A stretch of DNA of 64,000 nucleotides from Alphaproteobacteria bacterium (lineage in GTDB: Bacteria; Pseudomonadota; Alphaproteobacteria; JAUXUR01). The position numbers and the translations under genes were made by a program. Each line of letters begins with the position of its first letter. Position 1 is the first letter of the stretch. The stretch covers positions 4,197 to 68,196 of the forward strand of contig JAUXUR010000077.1 of assembly GCA_030680745.1 (NCBI GenBank), in the 5' to 3' direction. Positions 4,929 through 18,795 of this stretch are shown piece by piece. Below the pieces are notes generated by a model that worked only from the letters and a program-made list of their open reading frames with translations, had not been told where the DNA came from and ran no database searches.

Positions 4929-5118
4929 AATCACTAAATAAATATCGTCATTTTATATAATTGAGCTGTTTTTTTATGGTGTTAAAACTTTAACAAGATG
5001 GCTCCATTCTTTTGGTAAGCATATCAAAAAACATTATAAAGTTAATACACACCAACACAAAAATGTTTAAAAAGGCTTGCATGGGCTATAAAAAGACTGT
5101 ATATTTTCTCTATTCTTT

Positions 5119-5193
<75 letters not shown>

Positions 5194-5195
5194 AT

Positions 5196-6518
5196 TCAGT
5201 TTATCGTATGCCTTTTTTTAAAATCTACCTGATAACGATTACTTTTAGATTTTGGTTTTGGCTTTTTAATTTTTTTCTGAATTTTTAATACGTTCGGCAA
5301 TTTCTTATCTTTTTTACTTGGTTCTATAATCACTGGTATTTGAAGTGCGTTATCCATAGAAAATATGATAAAAGGCATAAAATAAGGTATGTTTTGTTTT
5401 TCTTTTATATTTGCAATTGTAGAAGTTGACATATCTTTTAAAAAGAGCTCAATATATATTCTTATTGCAGCACGTTCAGTTTCAGGATAGGCTAAAAAAT
5501 AATTTTTAAAAAAACTTTGCATTGCAATACTAGCGTTTGTGCATATGTTCGAAATAGTTGTTGCGCATATTTCGGTTTCGTTCATAGCATCAAAAAAAGA
5601 AATAAAAATTGAAAACAAATCACCCTCAACTGGATTGCTATCAGTTGTTTTCGATACGTAGCTGTCATTATCAATAGTTTCAACTTGGTTTTTTGTAAAA
5701 TCAAAATAAATATTCCCGCCATGCGCATCCCCATGGGTAATTGTTTTATAATAATCGGTTAGTTTTTTTTCGTAGCGCGTAATTGGATTGTTTTCAAATG
5801 TATCATCTTGCAATAAATCTTTACTAAGCAATGTTGATTGATCCATAAATGTAACATGCATATTTCCAAAAGCTTGACCTAATTTTTCGTAAGCTTTGAT
5901 AATATTATTAATAGATTCATTCTCGATAATATCATGAAATGGTTTTCCTTGGGCTGCATTTAAGATAATAAAATATCTATTTTTATCATTACTATCCATA
6001 TAATCAAATGAAAAAGGTAGTGCAAATAATGGTTTTGGAAAATCAGTTGGATTGTCTAAAAGCCATTGAATTTTATGATTTGACTGAACAATTCTTAAAT
6101 TATTGACCTCAATATCATAATCCTCTAAATTTTTAATAACATAGGTTAATTTCCATTCATTTGATGCTATTGGGTTTAAGCATTGCTGATTAATACTAAT
6201 AAGTGTAATTTTTAAATCACGTTCTGAATCAGATGGATTTCTTAATTGAACACAATTTGGATTTATCAAACGATCGCCCCTTTCATTTGGATCTAAATAT
6301 AAACTATTGTCTAAAAAATCAAAATATTCTTCACCATTTTCATCTTGTTCAATATTTTTTTTACTAAGCCAATCCGCAATAGATTCAATCTTAAGACCAT
6401 TTTCAGATATCTCATCATTGGTGACAAATATTTCTTCAAAAGCATATAAAACATTTGATGTAAAAAAAACGCCTATAAAATAGAGAACGCCTATAAAATT
6501 ATTCATAACAACCTCCAC
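5196..6518 (-). CDS. Secreted or membrane-anchored phosphotransferase-fold protein (APH/choline-kinase-like); horizontally acquired islet gene
   Basis: N-terminal hydrophobic segment. Brenner-type motif ITHGDAHGGNIYFD followed by TIDND. Lys-rich tail (KKIKKPKPKSK). The gene is visibly AT-richer than its flanks and lies between two identical tRNA-Gln genes. Confidence 0.5.
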   Translation of the reverse strand: MEVVMNNFIGVLYFIGVFFTSNVLYAFEEIFVTNDEISENGLKIESIADWLSKKNIEQDENGEEYFDFLDNSLYLDPNERGDRLINPNCVQLRNPSDSERDLKITLISINQQCLNPIASNEWKLTYVIKNLEDYDIEVNNLRIVQSNHKIQWLLDNPTDFPKPLFALPFSFDYMDSNDKNRYFIILNAAQGKPFHDIIENESINNIIKAYEKLGQAFGNMHVTFMDQSTLLSKDLLQDDTFENNPITRYEKKLTDYYKTITHGDAHGGNIYFDFTKNQVETIDNDSYVSKTTDSNPVEGDLFSIFISFFDAMNETEICATTISNICTNASIAMQSFFKNYFLAYPETERAAIRIYIELFLKDMSTSTIANIKEKQNIPYFMPFIIFSMDNALQIPVIIEPSKKDKKLPNVLKIQKKIKKPKPKSKSNRYQVDFKKRHTIN

Positions 6519-6701
6519 CTGTACATGTTCTATTATTTGTAAAAAAGATTAAAATAAAGTTAAAAAATATTTTATATTTCTACTTTAGTAAATTTATTTT
6601 ACAATTTATTTTGATCTTTATAAAAACAATCAATTAATAGCAGAAGCCTACAAAAGGGGTTGTGTAAGATGTAAAAAGGCTGTATCTTGTCATTATTCTT
6701 T

Positions 6702-6776
<75 letters not shown>

Positions 6777-6861
6777 ATTTTATTCATTAGCTCATTTCAC
6801 TTTTTTTTCTTAATTATATTTTTAAAAAACGCTACAAAATAATTCAATTTACATGACAAAG

Positions 6862-7200
6862 AATGAAATTAAGCCCATTTTTAACTATCCAGCTCTCACA
6901 CTCCGCAACTTATTTCTAAGAAGTGAAAACAATTTTTTACCAAAAGCCCTCTAAAAGAAGAGTTTTTTACCTCTCCCCTTGTGGGAGAGGTCGCGACCAA
7001 AGGGAGCGGGTGAGGGGTATTTTACAATTTTGGAGAGATGCGTATTTGTTTGGCAATGCTTAGATTATGGCGTGATGGCGTTGCTCTTTGTAAACGCTTT
7101 ATACACCCCTCACCCGTCGCTGCGCGTCGACCTCTCCCACAAGGGGAGAGGTAAAACCGAAGCAATTTCATTTTTTGTTTTGTAGATTGATTTTAATTAT
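6862..7200. repeat. Composite intergenic repeat family C, copy 1. It comprises the module aagcccatttttaactatcc...ccaaaagc plus a ~220-bp palindrome built on cctctccccttgtgggagaggtcgcg / cgcgtcgacctctcccacaaggggagagg.
   Basis: A second copy at 23183-23560 is >90% identical by eye. The arms are exact reverse complements. Confidence 0.75.
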
Positions 7201-8236
7201 AAATAATTTTTTGATCATTCCTATGAATAAAGCGTTGATTAGCAGCATCAAGCGCATCAATCAGTTCGCGGCCAATATTGCCACCCATTCCATTGATTTT
7301 TAAACGTAGGATCGCTTTAAATGAATTTATATGATCTTTAATAAGTCCTAAACAATCATCTGATAAATCGTGAATCGATGTTAAATCGTAAAGAGATTGC
7401 GCAACAATAGCGACAAGCGGGTAATCAAAAATCCCTCCTAAGCCTCGCAATTCATGTGAGGTTGAATTCAATCTTTCAAAAAAGGGCTTACGTTTAGATT
7501 CTTCTAAGTTTTCAGAGGATTTGCAATCACTTTCTAAAAGATGGATATACTTTAATACGACATCAAGAAAACCTTGCGTTTGTTTAGTAAGCTCTTTTCG
7601 AATCTCACGCATAATCTGTGGATCAACAATAGGGTATTCATCAGATGATTCATTTGAAGTTTTTTGATTTTTTTTTGGCATCACACTTAAGATGCGATAT
7701 TTTTTTACCTGTTCGGGTTTATCGAGTGGGCCGCGTCGATCGATTGTATAAGCTTCACGGGCTTTTTTACGTCTGTCTGGACCAAAAAAATTATCCGTTT
7801 TAACAAAAGTATTTTCATTCGTTAAAAGACGTTGTAAATGTCCCGTTACGGCGTCAACAGAAAAAGGCTTTGACAAAAATCCATTGCCACCAAGATCGCG
7901 TGCCCTGGTTATTTTTTCAACATCACAAATACCACTAATCATAATAAAAGGAATAAAGGGATTGGGTGATGCCTGATGTTGACGAACCCATCTTAAAAGT
8001 GAGATACCATCAACGGGCGACATTAACCAATCTGATATGATTAAATCTATGCCGCAACTACCAGGTTTGCTATGATCTTGAGGGTATGTTTTTAACACCT
8101 CAATAGCCTCTCCACCATCGCGTGCCTTCAATACATCCCCAATACCTAAACAACGCAAAATCGATGTAATAAGCCCCCTAACTTGATCACTATCTTCAAC
8201 AAGAAGTATCCTGATATCTTGAAAGCTTTTAATCAT
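7193..8236 (-). CDS. response regulator with N-terminal receiver domain and C-terminal Hpt (histidine phosphotransfer) domain
   Basis: REC motifs (LLVEDSD, ISDWLMSPVDG, SKP). C-terminal HELRGLGGIFDYPLV matches the Hpt H-x-L-K/R-G signature. Confidence 0.6.
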   Translation of the reverse strand: MIKSFQDIRILLVEDSDQVRGLITSILRCLGIGDVLKARDGGEAIEVLKTYPQDHSKPGSCGIDLIISDWLMSPVDGISLLRWVRQHQASPNPFIPFIMISGICDVEKITRARDLGGNGFLSKPFSVDAVTGHLQRLLTNENTFVKTDNFFGPDRRKKAREAYTIDRRGPLDKPEQVKKYRILSVMPKKNQKTSNESSDEYPIVDPQIMREIRKELTKQTQGFLDVVLKYIHLLESDCKSSENLEESKRKPFFERLNSTSHELRGLGGIFDYPLVAIVAQSLYDLTSIHDLSDDCLGLIKDHINSFKAILRLKINGMGGNIGRELIDALDAANQRFIHRNDQKIIYN

Positions 8237-8242
8237 TTTATA

Positions 8243-8665
8243 TTACCTTGCAATTGCGTTCGTCAGTCCAATGGCATTGGCAATTTGCTTTGAAATTGCT
8301 TCAAATGTAAATGGTTTAGTAATGTAACCTTGGATTGTTAAATTACCCATTTTACTTTCAAGTTGAGATGCATTGAAATCACTCACCATAATGACAGGTA
8401 GGTTTTTATTGGGACTATCTGATGAAGTACGCACCCATTTTGTAAGTTCTCCACCATCAATAGGTGTCATATACCAATCTGTTATCATCAAATGGATCGG
8501 GGAGTTTTGACGATATCTTGATTTAATTATATCGATCGCTTCTTTGCCGTTTTTGGCAAAAATGATTTTAGCTGATTTCATGCGTGACAAAAGTGCATTC
8601 ATTAAAAATTGTGTTGAGATATTATCTTCAACCACAAGTAGCGTTAAATCGTCTATCATCATCAT
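8243..8665 (-). CDS. single-domain response regulator (CheY-like receiver)
   Basis: LLVVEDN, MITDWYMTPIDG, TKP motifs. 140 aa. Lies 6 bp upstream of the REC-Hpt gene on the same strand. Confidence 0.7.
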   Translation of the reverse strand: MMMIDDLTLLVVEDNISTQFLMNALLSRMKSAKIIFAKNGKEAIDIIKSRYRQNSPIHLMITDWYMTPIDGGELTKWVRTSSDSPNKNLPVIMVSDFNASQLESKMGNLTIQGYITKPFTFEAISKQIANAIGLTNAIAR

Positions 8666-8807
8666 GAAACTTCTTATTTTTCTTGTTTATCTACCTAATT
8701 GTTCACTGTAATGAAGGATGGGTCAAGCAAAAACAAAAAGATTGCATATTTTTTAAAACTTCTTAAATTAGGTAAGCACAGGTTAAATACATTAGGATTT
8801 TAATAAA

Positions 8808-11800
8808 TTGCATTTACAGTATGGTTTTCAATTTCAAGATCTTTACACATTAGAAGGTTTGAAACGTTTAGACACATTATTTCTTGAAAAACTCAATAGC
8901 AAAAACCCTGAGCATAAAAAATTACTTATCGCTATGCGCGAACATCCTAAAAACTTTACAACCAAAGAACAATCTTCGTTTTTTTTAGAACTTGTGCCTT
9001 TTGTTGAAGATTTTATTGGATCGTTTTTTGATGTGCATCAAAATAGTATTCAATTAAAAGAGCATTATTTAAGTTATTTACCACTTATACGTGCCAAAAA
9101 AATATTTATACAAAGGCGTATTGGCAAAAATTATAATAACGAAAAAATTCAATCCATTGATGCAACGTCCTTAGAAAAAGACGTCATCGATATATTAGGA
9201 CCTGATTGGTCTGACTTAAAATTTGCAGTAAGAATATTAGATTTTTTAGAAGATGAAGAAAAATATGCAAAAGAGATCAAGCTGCTAAGTGACTATGCTG
9301 GATGGGCTATATATTCATTAGAAGGCATTCAAAAGCATAAAGAATCTTCTTTTTTTAAACTACCCGAAAAACTGGATTTTGAGCATTTAATTCATCATCT
9401 GCAACAAAAAAACAATCAATTACAATATGATGATTCGGCGTTAAGACAACGGAATGGCTTTTCGCTTACAGATCAAGGATGCTCAAAAGAACAATCTTTT
9501 GATCAAGCACATTATTGTATTTTTTGTCATCATCAAGGCAAGGATTCATGTTCTAAAGGCCTAAAATCTAAAACAACACAAGAATTTCAAGCCAATTCAC
9601 TTAGCATTTCGCTGACTGGGTGCCCTTTAGAAGAAAAAATTTCAGAAATGAATCAATCCGTTTCTGAAGGTTTTATTTTGGGCGCATTAGCCATTGCCAT
9701 GATTGATAATCCGCTTTTACCATTAACTGGTCACCGCATTTGCAATGAATGTATGAAGGCTTGTATTTACCAGAAACAAGAACCCGTTAATATTCCAGCC
9801 ATTGAAACAAAGATATTGCGCGATATTTTGTCTCTGCCCTGGGGCGTTGAAATATATTCTTTGCTTACGCGTTGGAATCCACTGAATTTTGAAAGACCGC
9901 TCCCCAAAGATTTGACGAATCATAAAATATTGGTAGCAGGGACGGGGCCCGCTGGTATTAATTTAAGTCATCATTTGCTGAATGAGGGTTTTGCTGTTTT
10001 TGCAATTGATGGGTTAAAAATTGAACCTTTATCCAATGTATTGGTTGGTGCCGGTTTTAAACCCATTCGTTATTTTAAAGAGATTCAAGAAAATTTAGAC
10101 GAACGTGTCATTGGCGGTTTTGGTGGTGTTGCTGAATATGGGATCACCATCAGATGGGACAAGAATTTTCTAAAATTAGTGCGTATCATTTTGGAGAGAC
10201 GTGATCATTTTCATCTAAAAGGGGGTATCCGTTTAGGCAGTAACATCACTATTGAGCAGGCCTTTTTATATGGTTTTGATCATATAGCGCTTGCTTTAGG
10301 TGCTGGTAAACCAAATCTTGTGCCCATTAAAAACAATCTTGCCAAAGGTGTTCGTATGGCTTCAGATTTTTTGATGGCTTTGCAATTAACAGGGGCATTT
10401 CAAAAAAGTAATCTTGCCAATCTGGAATTACGTTTGCCAGTTATTGTTATTGGTGGTGGATTAACAGCTATTGATACGGCAACAGAAGCGCTTGCTTATT
10501 ATCCGCGCCAAGTCGAAAAATTTTTGCATATTTATGAAACATTAAAACAAAAAAATATTGATGTTGATCAAAATTGGTCTTTTCAAGAAAAAGAAGACGC
10601 GCAAATTTGGCTTGATCATGCACGCGCCATTAAACATGAAAATGAAACAGCGATTCTTGAAGACCGTCAACCCAATATTATTAAATTACTTAGATCTTGG
10701 GGTGGCGTAAGTATTGCCTATCGTAAAACCTTACAAGAGTCCCCTTCTTATACGTTAAACCATGAAGAAGTTTCAAAAGCATTCGAAGAAGGTATTTATT
10801 TCATCGAAAATATCACCCCCATTGAAATTGAGCTTGATCAATATCAAGCGACAAAAGGTCTTAAAGTAAAACATCATGATGTTGATTTAATTTTACCTGC
10901 TAAAACAATTTTAATTGCAGCTGGAACTCAACCTAATATTACGTTAAAAGACGAAACCTCTTTTTTAAAAACAGATGGTAAATATTTTGAAGCACAAAAC
11001 CTTGCAGGCATAACAATAAATCCAGAAAAATCAAGTAAACCTAGCGAAATAGGCATTTTTACATATACGCATCATGATAATAGAAAAATATCCTATTTTG
11101 GTGATTTGCATCCTAGTTTTGCAGGCAATGTTGTTAAAGCTATGGCAAGCGCTAAACAAGGCTATCCTTATATTTCAAAACATTTAGAGATGCTTAAACC
11201 AAAAGACATACCTTTTCAGGAACTTTTTAATGACATAAATGAAAAACTCACCGCAATTATTACTGAGGTGAATCGTCTAACACCAAATATTGTTGAAATT
11301 GTTTTAAAAGCGCCGTTGGCTTGCGAAAATTTTAAGCCAGGACAATTTTATAGACTTCAAAATTTCGAAATGAGTGCTCGTAAAAATAGTGAAGCAAATT
11401 TCTCCATGGAAGGTATTGCCTTAACAGGGTCTTGGGTTGATGCATCAAAAGGGTTGCTGGGCTTAATCATTCTTGAAATGGGTGGATCATCGTCATTATG
11501 CACCTATCTTCAACCCAATGAAGAAGTCTTGTTGATGGGTCCAACCGGTACACCGACAGAATTACCCTCAGGTAAAAATGTATTATTAGTTGGTGGTGGC
11601 TTAGGTAATGCCGTTCTTTTTTCTATTGGTAAAGAACTGAAGCAAAAAGGATCAAAAGTTTTATATGTTGCGGGTTATAAAAAAATTGAAGATCGTTATA
11701 AAGTTCAAGAAATAGAAGATGCAGCTGATCATATTTTATGGTGCTGTGACGCGCAACCTGGATTTGAAATTGATCGTCCGCAAGATTTTACTTTTGTTGG

Positions 11801-12203
11801 CAATATTGTAGAAGCCATGCTTTCTTACGCAAAAGGCGATTTAGGCGACCAACAGATAAAGTTAAATGACATTGATCATATCATTGTTATTGGATCTGAT
11901 CGTATGATGGCAGCCGTTCAAAAAGCCCGCTATACAATATTAAAACCCTATCTTAAAGAACACACAGCTATCGGCAGCATTAATTCACCGATGCAATGTA
12001 TGATGAAAGAAATTTGTGCCCAATGTTTACAACGTCAGATTGATCCCATCACAGGCAAAGAAAAATTCGTCTTTTCCTGCAACAATCAAGATCAAGCTTT
12101 AGATAATGTTGATTTTAATTTTTTAAATCAACGTCTAGTACAAAATGCAACGCAAGAAAAATTGACGTCATCATGGATTGAACATCTTAAAACAATTTCA
12201 TAA
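8808..12203 (+). CDS. Large fused flavoprotein oxidoreductase. It has an N-terminal Cys-cluster domain, a GltD/NfnB/SudA-like FAD/NAD(P) pyridine-nucleotide oxidoreductase domain, and a C-terminal PyrK/NfnA/SudB-like ferredoxin-reductase domain.
   Basis: Cys motifs CIFCHHQGKDSC and CNECMKAC. Rossmann motifs VAGTGPAG and VIGGGLTAIDTA. FNR-type motifs GQFYRLQNF and LLVGGGLGNAV. Terminal Cys cluster CMMKEICAQC. Confidence 0.55.
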   Translation: MHLQYGFQFQDLYTLEGLKRLDTLFLEKLNSKNPEHKKLLIAMREHPKNFTTKEQSSFFLELVPFVEDFIGSFFDVHQNSIQLKEHYLSYLPLIRAKKIFIQRRIGKNYNNEKIQSIDATSLEKDVIDILGPDWSDLKFAVRILDFLEDEEKYAKEIKLLSDYAGWAIYSLEGIQKHKESSFFKLPEKLDFEHLIHHLQQKNNQLQYDDSALRQRNGFSLTDQGCSKEQSFDQAHYCIFCHHQGKDSCSKGLKSKTTQEFQANSLSISLTGCPLEEKISEMNQSVSEGFILGALAIAMIDNPLLPLTGHRICNECMKACIYQKQEPVNIPAIETKILRDILSLPWGVEIYSLLTRWNPLNFERPLPKDLTNHKILVAGTGPAGINLSHHLLNEGFAVFAIDGLKIEPLSNVLVGAGFKPIRYFKEIQENLDERVIGGFGGVAEYGITIRWDKNFLKLVRIILERRDHFHLKGGIRLGSNITIEQAFLYGFDHIALALGAGKPNLVPIKNNLAKGVRMASDFLMALQLTGAFQKSNLANLELRLPVIVIGGGLTAIDTATEALAYYPRQVEKFLHIYETLKQKNIDVDQNWSFQEKEDAQIWLDHARAIKHENETAILEDRQPNIIKLLRSWGGVSIAYRKTLQESPSYTLNHEEVSKAFEEGIYFIENITPIEIELDQYQATKGLKVKHHDVDLILPAKTILIAAGTQPNITLKDETSFLKTDGKYFEAQNLAGITINPEKSSKPSEIGIFTYTHHDNRKISYFGDLHPSFAGNVVKAMASAKQGYPYISKHLEMLKPKDIPFQELFNDINEKLTAIITEVNRLTPNIVEIVLKAPLACENFKPGQFYRLQNFEMSARKNSEANFSMEGIALTGSWVDASKGLLGLIILEMGGSSSLCTYLQPNEEVLLMGPTGTPTELPSGKNVLLVGGGLGNAVLFSIGKELKQKGSKVLYVAGYKKIEDRYKVQEIEDAADHILWCCDAQPGFEIDRPQDFTFVGNIVEAMLSYAKGDLGDQQIKLNDIDHIIVIGSDRMMAAVQKARYTILKPYLKEHTAIGSINSPMQCMMKEICAQCLQRQIDPITGKEKFVFSCNNQDQALDNVDFNFLNQRLVQNATQEKLTSSWIEHLKTIS

Positions 12204-17319: not shown

Positions 17320-18729
17320 TTAAAAACTAAAACCTACAACGCGACTTTGAAAGGCATTATCAAGTTGATCTAAAGGTGTTTTACCTGAGCATATGATGTT
17401 AAGTTTGCTCCAATCCACTTTAAAACCTAAATATTTGCAATCAAATTTTTTTGTTGTATTATCAAAAAGCTTTAAAAGCCAAAGAATGTTAGTTATATCT
17501 TTTACCCAATGATCAATATTTTTAATAATTAATAGGGAGTTTAAATGTTTTTGGGTTCCAGCTTGTAATGCTTCTAAAAACAATCCCTTTTTAATTTTAT
17601 AAGAACCATATAAGAACACGTCATCAGGCACAGCATTTTGAGCATCCACAATGTAGTAGGGCACACCAAACGCGCGCGCAATTAAAATGGATGATTCCTG
17701 AAAATCAGCATTACCTATGGAATCTAAATGACAATATGCTAAATATCGTGTTGATTCTGTAATGTTTTCATCGAGTGTCTCTTGTGCGTAATTTGCAAAA
17801 GACGTTAAAATTTCTTCGCAATCACTTTGGATATTATCTGATATATTTTTTTGGGTGAGTTCTGTTTTTAAATTGGTAATTATTGCTTCAAGTATTTCAA
17901 AATACTCATTATTTGTTTCTTGGGACAAAGTTTTTGTTTCAGTTGGGTGTGAAATCATAGAGTCAAGAAACTCTTTATCATGAAAAACATCTTGATTATA
18001 ATAAGACATAAAAGTTGATTCAATTTTATCTTGCCAATTTGCTAAAATTTTCGATTTGTTACTAACATACAAACATTCTAAATCGAAAATTTTGCCGGAA
18101 CTTGTTTGACGTTTAAGGGAGTTAATAAGATTAGATTGAGTAGATAATTGATGTTCAACTTCGCGTACAGGCGCAATCTGTTCCAACATCATGATTGCCT
18201 TTCTTGAAGGAATCATCAATTCACGCATTAATTTTTTGATACGCTTTTTACAATATGCGACACAATCATTATAAAGATGTTCTGCAATTCCAGGCTGAGC
18301 TATGACACTACTCATATATCTAATGAATTCGATAATAGAAGTTTCATAATATTTTTGAGATGAACCATTGGCAGGCGCATATGAAAAAGGGGCTGATGAG
18401 AGAATGCTAACTGAAATGATATAGGGTAACGCTTCCAATAAATAAGAAGATGGAAGAACAAAATATGTTGCTATGTTTCTTTTTTCATTCATTTCATCTA
18501 ATAGTTTTTGCAATGTTTCAATTTCTATTGTTTTGAAATTGATTATTTTTTCATCTAATAGTTTTTGTTTTTTAGCTTTCAGTAATGCTATTTTTGCTGT
18601 GCTTGTTGCAGAAAAGGACAGCTCAGATTGATCGTAAATATCACGCGTAAATATATTTTCTAGTCCCTTCATTGCGTAAGATTTTGTGCAAAAAAATAAG
18701 GATAAAAACAGTACATTTAAAAATTTCAT
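17320..18729 (-). CDS. Secreted paralog of the adjacent AAA+ protein, with a degenerate P-loop (pseudo-ATPase)
   Basis: Signal peptide from the ATG at 18729. Conserved post-signal motif ENIFTRDIYD (the neighbour has ENLFTHDLYR). Its C-terminal half aligns with the neighbour (YYIVDAQN vs YYLDIANE; KNIDHW vs IDDVDR), but Walker A is replaced by SSILIARAFG. Confidence 0.45.
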   Translation of the reverse strand: MKFLNVLFLSLFFCTKSYAMKGLENIFTRDIYDQSELSFSATSTAKIALLKAKKQKLLDEKIINFKTIEIETLQKLLDEMNEKRNIATYFVLPSSYLLEALPYIISVSILSSAPFSYAPANGSSQKYYETSIIEFIRYMSSVIAQPGIAEHLYNDCVAYCKKRIKKLMRELMIPSRKAIMMLEQIAPVREVEHQLSTQSNLINSLKRQTSSGKIFDLECLYVSNKSKILANWQDKIESTFMSYYNQDVFHDKEFLDSMISHPTETKTLSQETNNEYFEILEAIITNLKTELTQKNISDNIQSDCEEILTSFANYAQETLDENITESTRYLAYCHLDSIGNADFQESSILIARAFGVPYYIVDAQNAVPDDVFLYGSYKIKKGLFLEALQAGTQKHLNSLLIIKNIDHWVKDITNILWLLKLFDNTTKKFDCKYLGFKVDWSKLNIICSGKTPLDQLDNAFQSRVVGFSF

Positions 18730-18795
18730 TTGTATGGCCTCAATATAAGTAAAAGACACTCTCAAGTGCCTTTTATAATCTTAATTTTTGTTTAA

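Follow-up and report, generated by a model that had tools for sequence, protein, structure and literature searches.

A receiver-Hpt protein with a linker homologous to the CleD arginine-rich peptide, encoded divergently from an RP005/PRK06567-family flavoprotein

The Cle proteins of Alphaproteobacteria are single-domain CheY proteins that bind FliM and carry a C-terminal arginine-rich segment (ARR). In CleD of Caulobacter this segment (PREWVEAVAYVGPDRRRFNSADYKGPRKRKAD) binds cyclic diguanosine monophosphate (c-di-GMP); the ARR core is a tandem [Y/F]xGP[D/E][R/K]R motif, summarised as DRR-x11-(R/K)RxxD (PMC5677366, PMC7382256), and an arginine in helix alpha4 of the CleD receiver, R113, contributes to the binding (PMC5677366). 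Histidine phosphotransfer (Hpt) domains were not among the accompanying domains in the census of ARR proteins of 2017 (PMC5677366). Here we describe a protein of 347 amino acids (aa) which appears, by motif homology, to join a Cle-type c-di-GMP module to a phosphotransfer domain. Its gene lies in a stretch of 64,000 nucleotides (the window) from contig JAUXUR010000077.1 of an alphaproteobacterial genome (assembly GCA_030680745.1, positions 4,197 to 68,196). It follows the gene of a stand-alone receiver (REC) of 140 aa, REC140, and the two genes are divergent from the gene of an iron-sulfur flavoprotein of 1131 aa. The literature searched did not describe any REC-ARR-Hpt protein.

The 347-aa protein shares with the Cle proteins a CheY-like receiver followed directly by R-x-[FYW]-V-x4-[YF]-x-G-P-D-R-R-[RK]...[RK]R, the alpha4 arginine R113 and the restriction to Alphaproteobacteria, and it is 35-45% identical to single-domain REC-ARR proteins. 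It differs from them in that the ARR is internal and is followed by the Hpt domain, in that the second half-motif lacks Y-x-G-P, and in that the acceptor aspartate and the catalytic set are strictly kept, whereas CleD has a glutamate and Cle activation is phosphorylation-independent. The internal ARR, the Hpt domain behind it and the retained catalytic set make the protein Cle-like in part, but not a Cle protein.

The other described systems of this kind are the C-terminal REC-Hpt halves of the unorthodox hybrid kinases (ArcB, BarA/LetS, TorS, RcsC/RcsD) and the free Hpt proteins (HptB, Ypd1, AHPs). The 347-aa protein has in common with them the Asp-to-His relay logic and a helical-bundle Hpt domain with an HxxK/RG motif. 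Unlike the hybrid kinases, it carries no kinase core in the same polypeptide; it differs from both groups in its HELRGxGGxFG motif, which is nearest to that of CheA P1 (HSIKGGAGTFG), and in its arginine-rich linker of ~65 residues.

The 347-aa protein and its arginine-rich linker

We observed that the linker is homologous to the c-di-GMP-binding ARR of CleD, as judged by profile comparison, and that this homology is statistically supported. A profile of 46 linker positions was searched against all 177,635 distinct PDB sequences, and the sole match was 6SFT, the CleD ARR peptide (E = 3.6e-5). The alignment spans 33 positions including the second arginine pair, with the invariant R168 opposite K168 of CleD. 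The window linker reads NTFVKTDNFFGPDRRKKAREAYTIDRRGPLD, with FFGPDRR at residues 150-156. In an alignment of 25 diverse REC-Hpt family members (A1), the linker residues F151, G152, P153, R155 and R168 were invariant; R113, which matches R113 of CleD and sits in helix 106-114 of an AlphaFold2 (AF2) model, was kept in at least 90% of the sequences. Of 120 family proteins, 114 carried the core motif. The full-length AF2 model shows the linker as a beta-hairpin (142-153) and then a disordered loop (157-174), which fits the published CleD peptide, with its N-terminal hairpin and its largely unstructured state without ligand (PMC5677366, PMC7382256).

Further, with the receiver and the ARR together (residues 1-176) as the query, we searched 1.84 billion representatives exhaustively with HMMER. 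The search yielded mostly Cle-type proteins of 150-260 aa, 35-45% identical and aligned through the ARR. Among the best 148 representatives, 136 had the core motif (94 with the ARR only, 42 with ARR and Hpt) and 12 had neither. The second half-motif of the single-domain REC-ARR proteins was graded, from Y-x-G-P-[DE]-R-R to G-[ED]-[DE]-R-R; therefore the version in the window protein is inside the natural range. The overall span from D154 to D172 equals that of CleD. Most of the family has an arginine flanking the motif on its N-terminal side, which in the window protein is replaced by asparagine. An earlier note on this DNA, made by a model from the letters alone, had overlooked the Cle-type c-di-GMP-binding motif which homology points to in this linker.

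The two domains on either side of the linker kept the residues expected of a relay protein. Both small proteins scored well above the Pfam gathering score of Response_reg (61.8 and 59.4 bits compared with 30.2), and D15, D69, S101 and K123 were all intact in the receiver of the 347-aa protein (D69 codon at 8030-8032). The phospho-histidine H261 (codon at 7454-7456) opens the HELRGLGG motif of residues 261-268. In A1 the residues D69, K123, H261, E262, R264 and G265 were invariant and D15 and S101 nearly so, which settles in the affirmative the alignment check of the Hpt histidine and receiver aspartate that the earlier note had proposed. The HxxRG motif was intact in the window protein and in 115 of 120 close family members.

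The C-terminal domain was compared with known Hpt domains by several methods. Ten of 13 family domains matched the Pfam model PF01627 (best E = 1.7e-7), and a precomputed PF01627 match is on record for many homologs of the 347-aa protein. A profile of the domain matched CheA P1 chains in the PDB with the phospho-histidine columns aligned (aHElRGqGgiFG and aHsiKGgaGtFG). The AF2 model of the domain is a confident helical bundle with a predicted local distance difference test (pLDDT) of 88.5, and the full-length AF2 model places H261 on helix 250-269. Approximately 16 of the top 50 Foldseek matches to the domain were Hpt proteins, with HptB at rank 1, followed among others by CheA P1 (template modelling score, TM, 0.63/0.70), YojN, ArcB, Ypd1, AHP1 and plant and fungal HPts. 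These comparisons of sequence and predicted structure point to a genuine REC-Hpt protein, and the Hpt fold that the earlier note had proposed for its C-terminus was borne out. The architecture itself, which had been called unusual, is uncommon rather than rare, because the family, a large alphaproteobacterial one, spans more than 500 clusters of proteins and is encoded at 488 genome loci. Two members of the wider family (P0244 and P0288) have an aspartate in place of the phospho-histidine (…GIRGQ… / …SDLKS…) and keep the receiver aspartate; this sub-branch may consist of pseudo-Hpt variants.

REC140 is also a receiver (Response_reg, E = 4.7e-16) with intact catalytic residues (D14, D63, S95, K117). 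It has no ARR tail, and a glycine stands at the position of R113, so that the alpha4 arginine is lacking. It is 29% identical to the receiver of the 347-aa protein (BLASTP, E = 3e-24), and the two are paralogs of the same subfamily. The REC140 gene is the upstream one, and since only 6 bp separate it from the 347-aa gene (coordinates of the open reading frames, ORFs), we assign both to one operon, as the earlier note had done. REC140 was limited to the closest relatives of the window (loci L001, L081 and L083); therefore we regard it as an accessory and not an obligatory partner. It is plausibly an acceptor or a sink for the phosphorylated Hpt domain.

We did not find a histidine kinase in the window, in line with the earlier note. 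The analysis involved Pfam comparison of all 20 ORFs of at least 300 aa and of 10 more ORFs, and a six-frame scan for H-box motifs; approximately 15 ORFs of 150-300 aa were checked by motif scan alone. The proteins compared with Pfam were transporters, housekeeping enzymes and several without a match. The positions and the divergent arrangement of the three genes given in the earlier note were exact, with a spacer of 142 bp in place of the 140 bp it stated (Table 1).

Table 1. Features of the locus, in coordinates of the window
Feature	Position	Strand	Remarks
REC140 gene	8243-8665	minus	stand-alone receiver, 140 aa, operon gene 1
REC-ARR-Hpt gene	7193-8236	minus	347 aa, operon gene 2
Receiver domain, residues 9-139	7820-8212	minus	Pfam Response_reg, E = 8.2e-17
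Arginine-rich linker, residues 140-176	7709-7819	minus	NENTFVKTDNFFGPDRRKKAREAYTIDRRGPLDKPEQ; homologous to the CleD c-di-GMP-binding ARR peptide
Hpt domain, residues 206-345	7202-7621	minus	predicted helical bundle; phospho-His H261 in HELRGLGGIFDY, CheA-P1-like motif
Divergent control region	8666-8807		142 bp, between the REC140 and flavoprotein genes
Promoter-like element toward the REC operon	8726-8721 and 8703-8698		TTGACC (8726-8721), 17 nt, AACAAT (8703-8698); promoter scan
Block TTAAATTAGGTAAG	~8766-8779		flavoprotein side of the spacer
RP005/PRK06567-family Fe-S flavoprotein gene	8808-12203	plus	1131 aa
RP005_N domain, residues 1-232	8808-9503	plus	PF27156 on homologs
Cys region	9516-9815	plus	C237-x2-C240-x7-C248...C272...C312-x2-C315-x3-C319; Pfam Fer4_20 region
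GltD/NfnB-like FAD/NAD(P)H part	9903-11207	plus	GxGxxG at 378 and 549; Pfam Pyr_redox_2
PyrK/NfnA-like module, residues 815-1100	11250-12107	plus	own Cys cluster, C1064-x5-C1070-x2-C1073...C1091

The flavoprotein and its linkage to the receiver genes

The flavoprotein matched NCBIfam PRK06567 at E = 1e-242, with residues 1-963 aligned to profile positions 1-932 (profile length 1031). At 808 bits it scores under the NCBI equivalog cut-off of 1072; therefore the protein is a diverged PRK06567 member. NCBIfam also reported the PyrK-type models PRK06222 and PRK00054, and RP005_N (PF27156) is on record for homologs 95% and 82% identical to the window protein. Full-length homologs of ~1150 aa, 53-55% identical, number in the thousands and come from Alpha- and Betaproteobacteria. 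The window protein has in common with this family the four-part architecture and the retention in reduced intracellular Alphaproteobacteria, and its match to the family model is collinear, though under the equivalog cut-off; it differs by its divergence and by the pairing with REC-Hpt described below. In an alignment of 16 flavoprotein sequences (A3; mean column identity 67%) we observed seven invariant cysteines (237, 240, 248, 272, 312, 315 and 319) and four further ones (1064, 1070, 1073 and 1091). With the GxGxxG motifs at 378 and 549, both halves thus retain residues of the cofactor-binding kind, although any allocation of the cysteines to individual clusters is presumptive.

The closest enzyme of known structure is NfnAB/NfnI, the electron-bifurcating NADH-dependent ferredoxin:NADP+ oxidoreductase (PDB 4YLF, 5JCA), which gave the best PDB matches for both halves of the protein. 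The small subunit of NfnI matched residues 820-977, T. maritima NfnA residues ~820-980 and the large subunit of NfnI residues 439-563; there were also matches to PyrK and GltD. Both enzymes combine two flavin/nucleotide modules with a cysteine-rich Fe-S region and, at the C-terminus, a cysteine set of the [2Fe-2S] type. They differ in that NfnA (FAD and [2Fe-2S]) and NfnB (FAD and two [4Fe-4S]) are separate, whereas here there is a single chain with the NfnB-like part first and an additional N-terminal domain of 232 residues, whose profile found no relative in the PDB. The similarity is only local and of low identity, and most hosts of the RP005 family are aerobic Alpha- or Betaproteobacteria.

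The protein can thus be read, from its domain matches, as an NfnB-like part fused to an NfnA/PyrK-like module in the RP005/PRK06567 family. The parts named in the earlier note (Cys cluster, GltD/NfnB-like FAD/NADPH part, PyrK/NfnA-like part) were all recovered by the NCBIfam, Pfam and PDB matches. Their fusion, whose novelty it had implied by the remark that they are normally two subunits, proved to be the hallmark of a named and populous family; it is ordinary, and typical of Alphaproteobacteria with a reduced genome and an intracellular life. The enzyme has been reported in nearly every Rickettsiales genome (Rickettsiales literature); therefore it is expected in a reduced genome, contrary to the view that it would be surprising in a host-associated one. 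In Ehrlichia an RP005-family enzyme is present and glutamate synthase (GOGAT) is absent (Rickettsiales literature). We rejected the possibility of an ordinary glutamate synthase small subunit (GltD), as the protein contains the PyrK-like module and the Pfam comparison of window ORFs revealed none that is GltB-like.

The most likely role of the flavoprotein, judging from these relationships, would be that of a housekeeping NAD(P)H-dependent Fe-S enzyme which delivers electrons to ferredoxin-type acceptors. We also noted its neighbours in other genomes. A heme A synthase gene (COX15-CtaA) adjoins it in 8 of 85 loci, mostly in divergent orientation (L089 5205-10498, L090 5828-10504 and six more). 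A gene for a 2x[4Fe-4S] ferredoxin of the FdxA type is its neighbour in 7 of ~61 loci; this is only a hint of ferredoxin-linked bifurcation. In four loci of distant genomes (among them L086 1-9450, L091 1145-10498 and L118) a CysI-sirohaem synthase-CysH-CysNC cluster ends with the flavoprotein, and no CysJ-type reductase gene was present in the listed flanks of these clusters. In those genomes the flavoprotein may supply sulfite reductase with electrons. Together, the CtaA, FdxA and Cys neighbours weakly suggest a general NAD(P)H-to-ferredoxin electron donor.

We observed the divergent pair of flavoprotein and REC-Hpt genes in 7 of 7 informative loci of the window's clade (L001, L081, L083, L082, L084, L087 and L088), with REC-Hpt identities of 49-77%, differing flanks and spacers of 118-145 bp. 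Outside the clade the two were not linked. No flavoprotein was found within 10 kb in 79 wider REC-Hpt loci, and no REC-Hpt within 6 kb in 85 wider flavoprotein loci. The wider REC-Hpt sample comprised 80 genome loci with relatives 33-42% identical, and its only locus with a flavoprotein or a small REC gene nearby was L001, essentially the same organism as the window. A flavoprotein 63% identical to that of the window (L085) also stood without the pair. The divergent pair is therefore a trait of the window's clade only, and the co-occurrence of the three genes raised in the earlier note held for flavoprotein and REC-Hpt within this clade and failed for REC140, missing from four of the loci, and for the wider loci compared. 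In the 80 loci no neighbour cluster recurred in more than 14, therefore the REC-ARR-Hpt gene mostly stands as an orphan.

Hits in the scans for promoters and terminators were at background frequency; the promoter elements carry weight only because they are conserved across loci. In the seven aligned clade spacers CTTGAC was invariant, and a -10-like element ~17 nt downstream, toward the REC gene, was conserved. On the flavoprotein side a CTTACCTA(A/T)TT(T/A)AA block was present in six of the seven. We infer from this conservation that the elements may be back-to-back promoters. The pairing may reflect co-regulation, and we saw no direct evidence of redox sensing by the relay; the linkage pattern would fit co-regulation specific to the clade as well as an ancestral synteny in slow decay.

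Two further observations concern the clade loci. Genes for proteins of ~138 aa lie convergently after REC-Hpt in L082, L084, L087 and L088, and we considered them as hidden partners; they were rejected, as three encode related secreted proteins and the one in L084 an unrelated membrane protein. In L087 (132-1484) a gene for an aerotaxis-type receptor, a protoglobin-methyl-accepting chemotaxis protein, lies on the far side of the flavoprotein.

The proposed relay and its alternatives

We consider the locus to be best explained by a Cle-like REC-ARR-Hpt relay with REC140, beside a housekeeping RP005 flavoprotein (probability approximately 0.6). A kinase encoded elsewhere would phosphorylate D69. 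The phosphoryl group would then pass from D69 to H261 of the tethered Hpt bundle, as the intact and invariant residues suggest, and from H261 to a downstream receiver, for which the translationally coupled REC140 would be the obvious candidate acceptor or phosphate sink in the sub-clade. Motif homology raises the possibility that c-di-GMP, bound to the linker between REC and Hpt, gates this relay; we put this at somewhat less than even odds. One relative (L083, positions 6125-7812; 77% identical) has a PleD-like REC-REC-GGDEF gene convergent directly after REC-Hpt, which we count in favour of the proposed relay; its GGDEF motif seems degenerate (RYDANTF), and another small REC gene follows.

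Several findings weigh against this explanation. The Pfam comparison and motif scan of the window revealed no kinase, diguanylate cyclase or phosphodiesterase, and the six-frame motif scan no GGDEF or EAL ORF. The Pfam Hpt model did not match the 347-aa protein itself even at E ≤ 1, and the E-values of the Foldseek matches were weak (0.2-2). Four of the seven clade loci, the more distant ones, have no REC140. The neighbours of the flavoprotein elsewhere are heterogeneous (~61-85 loci; a short-chain dehydrogenase/reductase gene in 10). In the linker of the window protein the second half-motif is degenerate (IDRRGP, without Y-x-G-P), and the spacing (DRR-x10-RR-x3-D) is one residue shorter from DRR to RR than in CleD, where the deletion of single loop residues cut the affinity of the peptide 2-10-fold (PMC5677366, PMC7382256). 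A few family members have DRH in place of DRR.

Some of these points would suit a plain REC-to-Hpt relay without a second messenger, in which the FFGPDRR linker, a legacy of a Cle-like ancestor, serves only as a structural tether and has lost c-di-GMP binding. The degenerate second half, the shortened spacing and the lack of c-di-GMP enzymes in the window speak for it, as does DRH, given that R156A abolished binding in CleD (PMC5677366). However, the five linker residues are invariant although family proteins are only 33-50% identical overall, which argues for a functional linker and not a passive tether, and single-domain REC-ARR proteins often have this degenerate second half too (G-E/D-D/E-R-R). 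We regard the plain relay as a credible but doubtful alternative.

The redox-responsive phosphorelay proposed in the earlier note, in which the REC/REC-Hpt pair senses the redox output of the flavoprotein or controls its expression or activity, seems to us unlikely. The constancy of the pair speaks for it, as it persists in every clade locus down to 49% REC-Hpt identity, in differing flanks and around a spacer of constant size with conserved blocks. So do two kinase genes: in L081 (2354-5019) genes for a FIST-domain sensor protein and a 473-aa HATPase_c histidine kinase lie just beyond the flavoprotein (neither has a homolog in the window), and in L091 (10507-11910) a PAS-HisKA kinase gene begins 9 bp after a distant flavoprotein homolog. 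Against it stand the lack of linkage outside the clade (0/79 and 0/85), although both families are widespread, the unpaired flavoprotein of L085, and the Pfam results, which gave neither signalling protein a DNA-binding or redox-sensing domain. The Rickettsiales keep the flavoprotein, and we know of no REC-Hpt partner reported there. Thus the observations of the earlier note were confirmed and its interpretation is partly supported, while a redox link between relay and flavoprotein remains speculative.

Finally, we find it quite improbable that the protein is a Cle-like c-di-GMP effector with dispensable phosphorylation and an Hpt bundle serving as a protein-binding output, since, although Cle proteins act via c-di-GMP without need of a phospho-acceptor (PMC5677366, PMC7382256) and P0244 and P0288 have lost the phospho-histidine, HxxRG is intact in the window protein and nearly all close family members, and D69, D15, S101 and K123 vary little or not at all, where CleD has a glutamate at the acceptor position.

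To return to the proposed relay, if its linker binds c-di-GMP, the family (at least 488 species-level genomes) would compactly merge the two main bacterial signalling currencies. The second messenger would have a phosphorelay intermediate as its direct target, instead of a kinase like CckA or ShkA, and the Cle ARR module would reach beyond the control of the flagellar motor. The hypothesis is cheap to test with a 36-residue peptide. A wider proposal, that REC-ARR-Hpt proteins are c-di-GMP-gated Asp69-to-His261 hubs which a host-associated-looking clade co-regulates with the RP005 flavoprotein through a conserved back-to-back promoter, and which would link c-di-GMP and phosphorelay signals to the redox supply of the cell, appears to us very improbable. 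As for the flavoprotein, the earlier evaluation is corrected: it is a known, highly conserved and uncharacterised enzyme kept even by the Rickettsiales, and its heme A synthase, ferredoxin and sulfite reductase neighbours are testable leads to its role.

Other features of the window

Three large ORFs, all on the minus strand, had no Pfam family (17320-18765, 481 aa; 45926-48535, 869 aa; 57985-61875, 1296 aa), and leucine-rich repeat proteins are encoded nearby in relatives (L085). Both are consistent with a host-associated lifestyle, without proving it.

Two tRNA-Gln(ttg) genes (5119-5193 and 6702-6776) lie within a direct repeat of 128 nt (5069-5196 and 6652-6779; 90% identical). The repeats bracket an ORF on the minus strand (5196-6518) whose 440-aa product had no Pfam match. 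This product carries the kinase-like motif HGDAHGGN...IDND, and it is hydrophobic at its N-terminus and rich in lysine in its tail. The gene resembles an insertion at a tRNA gene, and its product is possibly an effector-type kinase.

Two genes of major facilitator superfamily transporters, 402 aa each and with near-identical Pfam matches, stand in tandem (41212-42420 and 42704-43912), where the GC skew is strongly positive (40-44 kb).

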